Notes: a model not told the origin generated them from the letters alone. 64,000 nt of DNA from an uncultured Muribaculaceae bacterium (GCA_964370475.1 CAYJJI010000003.1:14389-78388); one strand, 5' to 3'; counted from the stretch's first letter, positions 46,635-53,429 are shown. Made by a program: numbers and translations.

Positions 46635-47762
46635 TTAATATCCGTATCCTGCTAAATCTTTATGCAGTATTATTTCTATTTCTAATATATCTCCTCCAGA
46701 TTTTGTTTCAAGAGCATCAATATCTTGTCCTTCTAACCATACATATATTCTTGCTTTAGTTACTCCGTGTGGTAGTTCGAATAATCTTGTATTTAAATCT
46801 CTAAATGTATTTTGAAATATGAAGTGTTCATTATCAAAAGGTTGTCTTCCTTGACCACTATAATGACTTAGTTTATCTCCTGCCGCTATTACAGCATATG
46901 TAGGATGAAATACTCCATCTTCCAAAGTTACTCCATAATCTTCTGCTCTTTCTATTGAAAGATCATTGTGAGCTGTACTAAATGGCTCATAAATAAATGA
47001 CTCGCAGTTATTATTACATTCTAAATTTTGAACTGTTTCTCCACTAGCATTTTTATCTGGTGTGAATCCGCTTTTTGATATTCCTAATCTTACTGTGTTT
47101 AATAAACTTACCATTCTGTCTGATGTTCCATCTTGTAATTTTATACTTGTACCTTCCCATAAATATAAATTATCACTTACATCTGAATTACTTATATTTT
47201 TGATAAATACATCGAATGCAACAAAATTTGCTCCGCTTTGATCTTCTGTATATTGTCTAAAATCTAGATATAGTTGTCTTTCTTCTTTTGAATATCTTTC
47301 TCTATATAGTTCGAACATTGAAAATTCAAATGTATTTGAATCAGGTATTCCGTTTGATGATATTGGAATTAAACCTCTTGAATCTACCCATTTGTTATTA
47401 TGTCCTGGATATGTATCTTCAAGATTTGTTGTTACTTCTTCTTTATTTACTGTAATCGTCTCGTCATAATTTACACCATCTAGTGATATATAAATTCCTG
47501 TTTCACGATTTACAGATACTGTTACAAAATCTACGCTGGCGTCTAAGGTTGATGAAAACCATGCATAAGTAGATACAATTAAGACAATTCCAACAATAAA
47601 GGTAAAAAATAGCATCATGTTGTAATTTTTATTTTTCTTTTCTTTTATTATTTTATTACTAACTTTTGAAGGTTCCTTTTTATTCACATTCTTTTTAACT
47701 TTAGTTTTGGAAATTCCTACTTTTTTAGTAACTACTTTTTTTGTTTTCGTACTTTTTTTCAT
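46635..47762 (-). CDS. TasA/camelysin-superfamily secreted fibre-type protein (SipW-type signal peptide)
   Basis: 375 aa. Basic N-region, long h-region, then STYAWFSS (compare TasA GGTWAAFND and CalY GGTFAFFSD). C-terminal block ARIYVWLEGQDIDALE. Confidence 0.5.
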   Translation of the reverse strand: MKKSTKTKKVVTKKVGISKTKVKKNVNKKEPSKVSNKIIKEKKNKNYNMMLFFTFIVGIVLIVSTYAWFSSTLDASVDFVTVSVNRETGIYISLDGVNYDETITVNKEEVTTNLEDTYPGHNNKWVDSRGLIPISSNGIPDSNTFEFSMFELYRERYSKEERQLYLDFRQYTEDQSGANFVAFDVFIKNISNSDVSDNLYLWEGTSIKLQDGTSDRMVSLLNTVRLGISKSGFTPDKNASGETVQNLECNNNCESFIYEPFSTAHNDLSIERAEDYGVTLEDGVFHPTYAVIAAGDKLSHYSGQGRQPFDNEHFIFQNTFRDLNTRLFELPHGVTKARIYVWLEGQDIDALETKSGGDILEIEIILHKDLAGYGY

Positions 47763-47886
47763 AAATCACCTATTCGTTTTAATTAAGATTAAAGAGTAAC
47801 CTAGTGGTTACTCTTTTTTCCTAATCTAATTATTAGTTAAATATAACCTTTTTACTAATATAATTAGTTATTAACATTTATACAAA

Positions 47887-49131
47887 TTAGATAGTTGGAT
47901 ATCCATTATCAAGTGAACTTCCACCAAAATCTGTAGATGTTTCGTATTGTTGTTTTGTAAATCCAAAGTTTAGTTTAACTTCAGCATCTTCAACTTCAGC
48001 TAGGTCATGATTATCATAATCCATACCTTCTAAATAGATATAAACTCTGATTTTAGTGATACTATTTGGAGCTAAGAACATAAATGGATTTCTTGCATCT
48101 CCTTCAGTATCTTTATCTGAATCAGTGAATGTATCAAGTTGACTTACATATGTAGCATTTGGTGTTGCACCATTTACTCCATCATAGATATCAACGCTTG
48201 CAGTTTCTGGAATTGCTGTATGAATTACATTAGTATTGTATGCAGTTCCGTTTTCGAATGCAGTACAAGCTCCAGTTAAATCGTAACTTGTTGCATTTAA
48301 TAAATCTGCTGTATCTCCACCAACTCTGGCATTACAGTTGTCTGTATACCATTCTAGTGAATTTGCATTATGAACTGTATCATTTGGTTCCCAAATAGTA
48401 TTTCTATTTGCTAAACAAATTGGTGTAATACCATCAGCTGCTGTACTAGTACATGTCATACCAGTAATTGTTGATCCGTCTGTTGTTGTTCCTGCTACAC
48501 GTCCGATTTGCATGAATGCTACTCTTATAGAGTTTTCAATTCCTGAAGCCATATGTGTTGCATCAACTGTACCACCAGCTGCATCAACTACTGCTGCTGA
48601 GTTATAAGTTAAGAAGATTTCTTCTTCTTCTGTTGGATTATATCCTTGTAAATATTGAGTTCCTGATGAATTCTTTACGAATAAATCAAATACTACATAA
48701 TCTCCAGCTTCATTTGTTGAATTATCAATTTGTTCTGATAATACTTTAAATCCACCAGGAGTTCTTGTGAAACTTGAATTTTCAAAAATTTCAATTCTTG
48801 AAGAATCAGTATCGATTCCAGCTGCAGTAGATACTGGTTCTAAACCAGCTCCCCAGCTGTTTGTATGTCCATTATATACTGAACTTGCGTTTCCTGCTTC
48901 AAAAGCTGTCCATGCACCATTTGTAATGCTAATTGTGTCGCTCCATTCAGTTCCATTTAACGATAGTTCTAAGTGCTCAATTGCTGCAACTTCGATGTTA
49001 AAGCTGTTAACTCCAACTTCTTGTCTACCTATGAACCATGCGAAAGTTGAAACTAGAAGTACTACTGCGCTTAAACCAGCAAATACAATGATATTTTGGA
49101 CTTTTTTTACTTTTTTATTATTTTTTTTCAT
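47887..49131 (-). CDS. TasA/camelysin-superfamily secreted protein, paralog
   Basis: 414 aa. Signal ends VSTFAWFIGRQEVGVNSFNIEV (compare TasA AAFNDIKSKDATFASGTLDL). C-terminus IRVYIYLEGMDYDNHD…VKLNFGFTKQQ (compare TasA LQFSFEATQ). T/G/A/S-rich and K-poor, unlike neighbouring genes. Confidence 0.55.
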   Translation of the reverse strand: MKKNNKKVKKVQNIIVFAGLSAVVLLVSTFAWFIGRQEVGVNSFNIEVAAIEHLELSLNGTEWSDTISITNGAWTAFEAGNASSVYNGHTNSWGAGLEPVSTAAGIDTDSSRIEIFENSSFTRTPGGFKVLSEQIDNSTNEAGDYVVFDLFVKNSSGTQYLQGYNPTEEEEIFLTYNSAAVVDAAGGTVDATHMASGIENSIRVAFMQIGRVAGTTTDGSTITGMTCTSTAADGITPICLANRNTIWEPNDTVHNANSLEWYTDNCNARVGGDTADLLNATSYDLTGACTAFENGTAYNTNVIHTAIPETASVDIYDGVNGATPNATYVSQLDTFTDSDKDTEGDARNPFMFLAPNSITKIRVYIYLEGMDYDNHDLAEVEDAEVKLNFGFTKQQYETSTDFGGSSLDNGYPTI

Positions 49132-52151: not shown

Positions 52152-52210
52152 AACTTTATTTAAAGTTCTTTTTTTTTTGCATTGTAAAAAGACTATTTCT
52201 AGTCTTTTTT
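52150..52210. terminator. Terminator hairpins between the convergent camelysin-like (+) and TasA-like (-) genes
   Basis: agaacttt-attt-aaagttct followed by T9 (strong, + strand). agacta-tttc-tagtct flanked by A and T runs (weaker, minus). Confidence 0.5.
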
Positions 52211-53429
52211 AATTTGTAGTCAAGTTTCTTTTCAATGCTGTTATTACTGGTACTACTTTACACGTTGTATTTTTTAGTTCTCCATACATTTTCGAATCAT
52301 TTTGGTCAATTTGACTAATTGCAAATCCATTATCAATGTTGTATTCAGTGTTTGTCCATACGCAATTTGCAGTATTTAAATAATTGAATTTGTCATTTGA
52401 ATATGAAATATATCCACTTAAGCTTTTTGTTCTATCTATTATAGTATTTGCTCTTGAATCAAACAGTAAATTTCCAACAATTATGTCTGAAGTTGAGTCT
52501 GATTTTATTACGGTTTGTTCTATATCCTTTGATGTTGTTTTTACTACATCAAGGGCTGTAAGAGGTCTATGTGATACTGTCCATCCGCTTACTATTGAGT
52601 TATAAGTTGTTTGATAATTTTGGAAATTACTTGTTTGATAAGAACTTTTTACATCTGGTATTAAGTTAACTGTTTCATCTCCTATTTTACTATTTGAATC
52701 TATTACTGATGCTTTTATACAGTTACCACCTATTGATGTACATCCAGTGTGACTTACAACATCTATCAATACTGATTGACCTAATTGATAAAATTCATCA
52801 TATCCAGTTGCTTCCTTAACATCTTGTTCTGCTATTACAGTTAGTTTCAATTCTATCGGTTTAAGCATTTGATAACTTGGGTCTGCATTTAATTTAGCTT
52901 GTTCTTCTAAATGAAAGTTATATGCTGTTTGTCCCCAAAATGTATCAACAATATCATCACCAGAATCTGCTGGCCATGATATTGAAATTATAAATGAGCT
53001 TGATGATTTAGGTTCTATTATATTATCTTTTGTTATGACATTTACTTTAAATGGATAATCATGTGCAAGAGCATCTATTATGTCTGCAGAAGTCATTGAT
53101 TCTCCAACTTTATATTGGTCTTCATTAAGAATTCTTGCTTCATTAACAAATATATTTAATAATGCGTTTGTATCACCTTTATTATTTATTGTTATTTCTT
53201 CATATACTGTTTCCATTCCTGGATAGATATCTCTTGATACAATATCAATACTATTATTTACTGTATCTTCTCCATCTTTAAATTCTATTGACCATGCTTT
53301 TACGTCTACTGTAGTTCTTCCGCCAACCATTCCTGAGAATGTGAACCATGCATATGTTACTGATATAAATGATAGTATTAAGAATAGGATAATTACTATA
53401 TATAATCGTCTTTTATGATTTTTAATCAC
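52209..53429 (-). CDS. TasA/camelysin-superfamily secreted protein, divergent paralog
   Basis: 406 aa. Signal end SFISVTYAWFTFSGMVGGRTTVDVKAW. It comes first after sipW, like tasA after sipW in B. subtilis. Confidence 0.5.
   Translation of the reverse strand: MIKNHKRRLYIVIILFLILSFISVTYAWFTFSGMVGGRTTVDVKAWSIEFKDGEDTVNNSIDIVSRDIYPGMETVYEEITINNKGDTNALLNIFVNEARILNEDQYKVGESMTSADIIDALAHDYPFKVNVITKDNIIEPKSSSSFIISISWPADSGDDIVDTFWGQTAYNFHLEEQAKLNADPSYQMLKPIELKLTVIAEQDVKEATGYDEFYQLGQSVLIDVVSHTGCTSIGGNCIKASVIDSNSKIGDETVNLIPDVKSSYQTSNFQNYQTTYNSIVSGWTVSHRPLTALDVVKTTSKDIEQTVIKSDSTSDIIVGNLLFDSRANTIIDRTKSLSGYISYSNDKFNYLNTANCVWTNTEYNIDNGFAISQIDQNDSKMYGELKNTTCKVVPVITALKRNLTTN

Follow-up and report, generated by a model that had tools for sequence, protein, structure and literature searches.

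We lean, with moderate confidence, towards the view that six neighbouring genes at positions 46,635 to 53,429 of a 64-kb stretch of bacterial DNA (CAYJJI010000003.1; hereafter the window, ~26% G+C, with open reading frames (ORFs) read with code 11) encode exported subunits of a signal-peptidase-dependent surface fibre or matrix like that of TasA/SipW, without being detectable members of the TasA/camelysin family. The six genes make up the cargo half of a two-module cluster of ~15 kb (44652-59618), and the gene order of this cluster is kept in dozens of species represented by metagenome-assembled genomes (MAGs). Judged from its sequence, the other half, module B, appears to be a unit of the CoCoPALM type, with the array as its putative cargo. 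The placing of the array as cargo of a conserved CoCoPALM-type system is a more interesting result than the analogy with TasA.

A first-pass annotation of this DNA had described the six genes as an expanded array of TasA-superfamily genes, with ORFs of 375, 414, 464, 240 and 406 aa on the minus strand and one of 202 aa on the plus strand. All of them are present with exactly these lengths and positions, and we call them g375, g414, g464, g240, g406 and g202. Scans with Pfam, NCBIfam, PHROGs and PADLOC assigned no family to any of the six proteins. The unusual composition that had been claimed was borne out for g414 and g464, which contain 2.9-3.2% Lys against a window mean of 9.4 +/- 3.7 and 36.6% Thr, Gly, Ala and Ser against 21.2 +/- 5.9, a deviation of ~2 standard deviations from the 51 ORFs of the window. 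A foreign origin, which the annotation had offered as one explanation, found no support. The raised G+C of the array genes came from codon position 2 (0.44-0.45 vs 0.27), and because their G+C at codon position 3 (GC3, 0.13-0.14) equals the window mean of 0.15, we see no sign of foreign origin and regard the codon usage as native; g414 was also unmatched by tblastn in phage and plasmid collections. More than 1,794 homologs of g414 were found, and the g202 family, with 1,876 representative clusters, is likewise large and carries no annotation. Many g414 homologs contain Ig-like domain insertions (PF16403), and four cysteines of g414 (C227, C239, C266 and C289) are invariant or at least 90% conserved in the family alignment. 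These cysteines and insertions would fit an extracellular location of the g414 family.

In g375, g414, g464 and g406, a basic n-region is followed by a hydrophobic stretch of ~18-20 residues and then by TYAWF or TFAWF, and in g202 the sequence TYSRY stands in the same place. The n-region of g375 is unusually long, with a median of 47 aa ahead of the motif in its family. Within the window, such a motif after a hydrophobic stretch is confined to this cluster. Residues T29, A31, W32 and F33 are invariant among 34 diverse homologs of g414, and the pattern T-[FYW]-[AS]-x-[FY] was found in 61 of 62 g414-family proteins and in 110 of 111 TasA homologs. Thr at -3 together with Ala or Ser at -1 satisfies the rule for signal peptidase I. 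In TasA, the sequence of which was checked against 8aur, the mature chain starts with AFND directly after TWA. The g240 protein has an N-terminal transmembrane (TM) helix without the T-x-A-x-F junction, which was found in none of the 61 members of its family, and the helix is probably left uncleaved. The AWF junction claimed for the array is therefore present in four proteins, replaced by TYSRY in g202 and missing from g240. The annotation had also expected secreted proteins of a structural type, and the SipW-type signal end agrees with this, as does the TIGR02228-type peptidase encoded in the same operon.

The six proteins are not equally related. BLASTP aligned g414 with g464 at 34% identity (E 5e-71) and g375 with g414 at E 1e-18; no other pair among the six was significant. 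With hhalign profiles built from syntenic homologs, g375 matched g414 at 100%, g406 at 88.9% over a partial alignment (N-terminal 90 aa) and g240 at 65.7%, again partially (C-terminal 72 aa), and the broad g202 family matched g406 at 74%; g202 against g414 or g375 was not significant. On these BLASTP and hhalign scores, g375, g414 and g464 are solid paralogs to which the rest are joined by a weak chain: g240 and g406 are borderline relatives, and g202 seems weakly linked to the array by way of g406. The idea of a single six-gene family holds in full only for the first three.

A block of the form (R/K)(I/V)Y(V/I)(W/Y)LEG(Q/M/N)D, followed by a strand, is common to the ends of g375, g414, g464 and g240, and at the DNA level it appears as a 58-nt repeat in four copies with 62-79% identity. 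The beta domain of g240 finishes in the VWLEGxD part of this block, and its counterpart in g202 is IRVYFNWYDG...ILFEQ. The block had been described as C-terminal throughout, which is correct for these four proteins but not for g406, where the equivalent strands lie mid-protein, near residues 150-210, and an extra domain of ~200 aa comes after them; the N-terminal jelly-roll-like domain of g406 is akin to g202 and g375.

The adjacent g414 and g464 genes had been read as tandem duplicates with visible DNA identity near their 5' ends, suited to recombinational variation. They are paralogs, but the 5' identity was overstated, since it amounts to ~25 nt encoding VSTFAWFI. The longest common DNA stretches are no longer than 64 nt, with 62-88% identity, and all of them lie over conserved motifs; recent gene-conversion tracts between the two genes were sought at the DNA level and none was found. 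The pair is orthologous in the two closest species (loci L002 and L004), and the copy number of g414 varies from 1 to 6 across 75 loci, with within-locus identities of 34-88% (median 56%). Therefore, the expansion has been recurrent and is not recent here. The tandem pair, being only 34% identical, is old and is not the product of recent conversion, and the proposal of recombinational variation is not supported.

The annotation had further assigned the array to TasA/camelysin, with g202 as a classical camelysin-like protein. We found no match to PF12389 for the six proteins (E <= 1), for 34 g414-family members (alignment A1, E <= 10) or for 41 remote g202 relatives (alignment A4, E <= 1), although this domain is carried by all 120 TasA homologs among the matches listed. 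TasA was not among the matches of a PDB profile search at E <= 10. When a TasA family profile built from 111 homologs was compared by hhalign with every family of the locus, the probabilities were 0.2-4.6%, also with a broader g202 alignment. The best of these non-significant alignments, between the g202 family and TasA, paired IRVYFNWYDG...ILFEQ with VQMEIQFKDD...FSFEATQ. Because this is the same strand pair that the first-pass annotation had pointed out, the resemblance to the FSFEATQ strand of TasA is real as a pattern, without statistical support.

The AlphaFold2 (AF2) model of g414 (predicted local distance difference test (pLDDT) 83.7, predicted template modelling score (pTM) 0.82) runs from an N-terminal helix through a disordered hinge (residues 32-36) into a beta-sandwich, in which residues 43-50 form the strand after the hinge and an inserted region holds the conserved cysteines. 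The model of g202 (pLDDT 78) is a generic jelly-roll, and TasA was not within its top 60 structural neighbours. The camelysin-like assignment of g202 is not supported, as the model is not TasA-specific and the remote relatives of g202 do not match PF12389. Thread and cannula families have been placed in the TasA superfamily (10.64898/2026.01.04.697558). For the present array, this superfamily offers a reasonable functional analogy with weak structural support, and family membership is unproven. Overall, most of what the first-pass annotation observed is borne out, and its interpretation in part.

Module B, which the first-pass annotation had not recognised as part of the system, lies directly upstream of the array on the minus strand, with start and stop codons that overlap or nearly abut. 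It contains three peptidase-like proteins. The sipW198 product scored 77.3 bits with TIGR02228 (cut-off 51.85) and 65.5 bits with the SipW model, and its family consensus retains the Ser (GSMEP) and the His (THEV). In sipL736, a TM segment, GSMEP, THRI and a second TM segment are followed by an acidic, Lys-rich cytoplasmic tail of ~560 aa; the protein matched Pfam Peptidase_S24 at 26 bits, above the cut-off, and sipW198 by hhalign at 99.1%. The p191 protein aligned with the sipW198 family at 96.2% and has the same two-TM topology, and it is probably inactive because both the GSMEP serine box and the catalytic His are missing. We regard it as a probable pseudo-peptidase, and sipW198 and sipL736, with Ser and His intact, as predicted active enzymes. 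In many loci p191 adjoins sipL736 at the head of the module.

Between the two predicted active peptidases lie a McrB-like GTPase, AAA507, and a McrC-like protein, D2357_380. The stop of sipL736 and the start of AAA507 share one base, and the last 4 nt of D2357_380 overlap the start of sipW198. In AAA507 a TM segment (48-81) is followed by a heptad-like stretch rich in Leu, Glu and Lys, and the protein has a Walker A motif (GISGTGKT), a Walker B motif (LDEMN) and the signature GTINNDDS, of the NxD type. It matched McrB in the PDB (6hz4, E 1.9e-5) and PADLOC PDC-M26A (E 3.9e-37), and it is 31-38% identical (E ~1e-50) to plasmid AAA ATPases that adjoin DUF2357 proteins in CoCoNuT-type loci, where GTANHDET, an NxD variant, aligns with its signature. 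Pfam DivIC/FtsB gave no match at E <= 1, so that the likeness to FtsB is one of TM and coiled-coil architecture. D2357_380 scored 25.3 bits with DUF2357 (cut-off 23.3) and has a predicted helical or coiled-coil region; Pfam detected no nuclease domain in it.

The CoCoPALM class was named, with its analysis deferred, by Bell et al., eLife 2024 (PMC11090510), and the authors who defined it linked it to pilus assembly (PMC11090510); no further mention of it was found in the literature searched. The features of the class recur in the segment 53447-58930, namely an NxD McrB-like GTPase whose N-terminal part has a TM segment and coiled coil, a McrC homolog with DUF2357 that adjoins the GTPase in 12 of 12 loci, and flanking signal peptidases, with sipL736 upstream and sipW198 downstream; the paralog p191 lies beyond sipL736. 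The exported jelly-roll genes, their SipW-type motif, h554 and the pseudo-peptidase are not described in the defining paper (PMC11090510), and nor is the architecture of two modules. The array would supply the missing cargo for a class that has so far only been named. A cultured example of CoCoPALM was sought among the plasmid homologs of AAA507, and all those inspected were CoCoNuT/McrBC-type loci without peptidases.

When species-representative genomes were scanned, 74 loci came up in gut, rumen and digester MAGs that carry the label Bacilli, Mollicutes or Tenericutes. Module A has the order g240, one to six g414 copies, g375, K111 in some loci and h554, with g240 ahead of the g414 copies in nearly all loci. 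Module B has the order p191 (not always present), sipL736, AAA507, D2357_380, sipW198 and g406, and g202 lies close by on the other strand; in two permuted loci (L041 and L049), g202 lies beside p191 and g240 instead. The order of module B was invariant in all 12 loci in which its four core genes were visible: D2357_380 is always between AAA507 and sipW198, and g406 always follows sipW198. The two modules adjoin in variable relative order, and module B was present in each of the seven loci with at least 7 kb beyond h554.

The features of the cluster are listed in Table 1. The promoter-like match upstream of g240 was the best in the region. A hairpin equivalent to that ahead of g375 folds in each of seven other loci, with compensatory changes in 3 of its 11 pairs. 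K111 weakly matched the histone H1-like HC2, and its last 32 nt are also the first of h554, which starts with TTG; six other loci have a weakly detectable counterpart of K111 in the corresponding place. For h554 we collected 57 syntenic homologs; the protein has no TM segment and matched nothing in Pfam (a scan that included 14 members) or in the PDB (single-sequence and profile searches). Pairwise hhalign among h554, the sipL736 tail, D2357_380, AAA507 and K111 revealed no relationship.

Table 1. Features of the two-module cluster, numbered from the first letter of the window (ER, endoplasmic reticulum)
Feature	Coordinates	Strand	Description
h554	44652..46316	-	Conserved cytoplasmic helical protein; nearly always after g375
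K111	46285..46620	-	111 aa, 26% Lys, histone-H1-like, PAKK-like repeats
g375	46635..47762	-	TYAWF paralog; candidate minor subunit
g414	47887..49131	-	Paralog of major-subunit type
g464	49157..50551	-	TFAWF paralog of major-subunit type; T/G/A/S-rich, Lys-poor
g240	50575..51297	-	First gene of module A; candidate membrane anchor or nucleator
g202	51543..52151	+	Small secreted jelly-roll protein; invariant TYSRY; divergent transcription
g406	52209..53429	-	Secreted, TYAWF signal end; candidate tip or minor subunit
sipW198	53447..54043	-	SipW/archaeal (ER)-type signal peptidase I
D2357_380	54040..55182	-	McrC-like partner, DUF2357
AAA507	55197..56720	-	Membrane-anchored McrB-family AAA+ GTPase with coiled coil
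sipL736	56720..58930	-	SipW-type peptidase domain with long cytoplasmic tail
p191	59043..59618	-	191-aa signal-peptidase paralog, two TM; first gene of module B
Hairpin	44638..44659	.	Bidirectional terminator-like; closes cluster against convergent phosphoketolase gene
Hairpin	47791..47816	-	11 bp, between last major-type gene and g375; terminator- or attenuator-like
Promoter-like match	51350..51379	-	TTGACT-18-TATAAT, sigma-70-like, 11/12, consensus match only

From the gene content, the paralogy, the conserved motif, the synteny, the assignment of the peptidases and the GTPase to families and the beta-sandwich models, we infer how the system might work. Module A would be transcribed from its own promoter, through g240, g464 and g414 and then past the attenuating hairpin into g375, K111 and h554. 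The pre-proteins would enter the membrane by the Sec pathway and be held there by the h-region of ~18-20 residues until sipW198, sipL736 or both cut after T-Ar-A (Ar, aromatic), that is at TFA|WF or TYA|WF, and at TYS|RY in g202. The cut would expose an N-terminal amphipathic strand, WFIG..V.V..F.V.I, and g464 and g414, as the major subunits, could then polymerise, for which donor-strand complementation is the likeliest mode. The uncleaved g240 would stay in the membrane as an anchor or nucleator, and g375, g406 and g202 may be minor, tip or adaptor subunits. AAA507, D2357_380 and the tail of sipL736 might make processing or assembly dependent on nucleotide hydrolysis or on a cytoplasmic signal, and together with the cytoplasmic proteins they might regulate or power these events. 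It is a tentative and rather doubtful extension of this scheme that a GTPase machine derived from McrBC, made up of the TM/coiled-coil McrB homolog, a McrC homolog without nuclease and a signal peptidase with a large cytoplasmic domain, has been exapted in Gram-positive bacteria as a motor that assembles or gates a TasA-like extracellular fibre.

On the current view, TasA-type fibres form outside the cell with no energy source, and SipW and TapA suffice for this. In the present cluster, conserved synteny joins fibre-like subunits to a McrB-like GTPase anchored in the membrane and to its McrC-like partner, and this would link cell-surface biogenesis with a family otherwise known from DNA restriction and predicted immunity alone. 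If the motor proposal were true, it would define a previously unknown class of nucleotide-dependent pilus or fibre biogenesis, with the array proteins as anchor, major and minor subunits. The system occurs in uncultured low-GC Bacilli of human, animal and digester microbiomes, where all of its components are annotated as 'hypothetical'. Because it is widespread and unannotated, it may be one of the major surface structures of these gut organisms and have gone unrecognised.

Several results weigh against a TasA/SipW-like fibre. In a check with NCBIfam TIGR04088 that the first-pass annotation had suggested, g375 alone was reported, at 13.7 bits and below the cut-off of 19. The array proteins have no sequence-level homology to TasA/camelysin, and Foldseek of the g414 model against the PDB returned nothing significant, the weak matches being viral jelly-roll capsids. 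The aromatic T-Y-A-W-F could equally be the interfacial belt of an uncleaved membrane anchor; no function can be assigned to h554, K111 or the tail of sipL736; and module B may have an immune rather than an assembly role, because the nearest relatives of AAA507 are found in predicted defence systems. The belt-like motif would suit proteins that form a non-polymerising coat or serve as adhesins, retained by an uncleaved anchor or released as monomers, and act as variable antigens rather than as a fibre. At 18-20 residues the hydrophobic segment is as long as a TM segment, aromatic belts are typically found at membrane interfaces, the copy number of 1-6 with paralogs 34-88% identical is as in variable surface antigens, many homologs have Ig-like insertions, and g240 clearly has no cleavage motif. 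However, the Thr at -3 and the Ala at -1 are invariant, the locus has dedicated peptidases (two predicted active and one inactive), the top structural neighbours are filament subunits, and the operon has a layout of the major/minor type with an attenuator hairpin, so that we consider such a coat unlikely.

We find it improbable that the genes are true TasA/camelysin members (Peptidase_M73, PF12389), in the form of enlarged TasA paralogs with one classical camelysin. The common T-Ar-A-x-F signal end, the adjoining SipW-type peptidase and the fact that the best alignment of the g202 family with TasA was the strand pair already pointed out all speak for membership, but PF12389 was not matched by the six proteins, the 34 g414-family members or the 41 g202 relatives, hhalign gave only 0.2-4.6%, TasA was absent from the PDB profile search, the inserted region is large and the accessory genes are unknown in tasA/calY operons. 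It would be more surprising still if the whole cluster were an anti-phage or conflict system, with a CoCoNuT-like McrBC module that detects infection and works by way of the exported proteins, for instance to remodel surface receptors or shed them. In favour of this, McrBC systems belong classically to type IV restriction (PMC11090510), AAA507 has its closest relatives in CoCoNuT-type loci with DUF2357 partners, and it matches PDC-M26A, a PADLOC model of a candidate defence system, at E 3.9e-37. Against this stand the result that Pfam found no nuclease domain in D2357_380, a cluster that is syntenic and chromosomal in many species and has native codon usage, unlike mobile defence islands, the lack of matches to g414 in phage and plasmid collections, and the link to pilus assembly drawn by the authors of the CoCoPALM class themselves (PMC11090510). 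We retain the exported subunits of a signal-peptidase-dependent fibre or matrix as our preferred interpretation.

Some observations concern the surroundings of the cluster and its relatives. In locus L025, three extra exported proteins (1233, 184 and 307 aa) are encoded between h554 and p191 (11477-16664), and an equivalent gap of ~5 kb separates the modules in many other loci; no homologs of these genes occur in our window. At the place of the signal end they read ..IPSWARF (1233 aa), ..ITYSIFHS (184 aa) and ..MAKYIS (307 aa), of which at least that of the 184-aa protein is related, and the three might serve as tip or adhesin components. The convergent phosphoketolase gene, on the plus strand, shares the bidirectional terminator with the cluster and flanks the cluster in L004 too; next to it, a Fur-family regulator and a rubrerythrin are encoded on the minus strand (41237-44639). 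The closest relatives of the cluster (L002-L005, L011, L012, L024 and others; CAYJ..., CAZ...) are in MAGs titled uncultured Muribaculaceae bacterium, which is a family of Bacteroidota, and one further locus is titled Ignavibacteriales; on low-GC loci of the Bacilli type, these titles look like mislabelled or mis-binned records. Because a sortase and an LCP protein are encoded, we take the organism to be walled and Gram-positive. The sortase domain is C-terminal in a 514-aa protein, followed by a 900-aa ORF without Pfam match or LPXTG; this segment (30673-34930, plus strand) differs from the rest of the window in its G+C of 19-20% and its strongly positive GC skew. A 1098-aa ORF on the minus strand (5839-9135), with an N-terminal TM segment, a long low-complexity region rich in Asn, Asp and Gln and no Pfam match, may be another surface protein.

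Among known surface fibres, sortase-assembled Gram-positive pili have a sorting signal and a pilin-specific sortase. Here, LPXTG with a hydrophobic tail was absent from the inspected C-termini of all six proteins, and the sole sortase of the window lies 14 kb off, at 30673-32217. Chaperone-usher pilins (CS1/CFA-I/Saf) share with the array the weak matches to SafA, an NCBIfam model of such pilins, in 12 of the 34 g414-family members (best E 6e-4, with composition bias possible) and the logic of assembly by donor-strand exchange, which for the array is a proposed one. However, they are Gram-negative and depend on an outer-membrane usher and a periplasmic chaperone, both missing from the present cluster, and the similarity is at the level of the fold only. 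Closer parallels are found in the TasA superfamily of donor-strand filaments, which includes the Saci_0406 threads, AbpA, AbpX, the CanA cannulae and Tafi (10.64898/2026.01.04.697558). In both cases a dedicated TIGR02228 peptidase lies in the locus (here sipW198), together with minor or tip subunits, anchors and peptidase-accessory proteins, for which the present cluster has candidates. The accessory protein of the superfamily is DUF5305, sometimes fused to the peptidase, which may be compared with the fused tail of sipL736; here a McrB-like GTPase is found instead, and the hosts are low-GC gut and digester Bacilli. Homology of the array to the superfamily, for which no link of HHpred grade was obtained, is putative, and its polymerisation is a proposal.

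The tapA-sipW-tasA operon of Bacillus subtilis likewise encodes an ER/archaeal-type signal peptidase with its substrates, which have the same signal end, T-Ar-A|x-F, and the subunits are beta-sandwich or jelly-roll proteins, in the present array according to the models. TapA, like g240, has an N-terminal membrane segment and is the first gene ahead of the major subunit. The two systems differ in that sequence homology is undetectable, that the subunits here are 1.5-2x longer and have a Cys-containing insert, and that there are several paralogous major-type genes, with two predicted active peptidases and a pseudo-peptidase. What the present cluster has in addition to the content of tasA operons is the McrB-like GTPase, the DUF2357 protein, the 554-aa cytoplasmic protein and the small Lys-rich protein.

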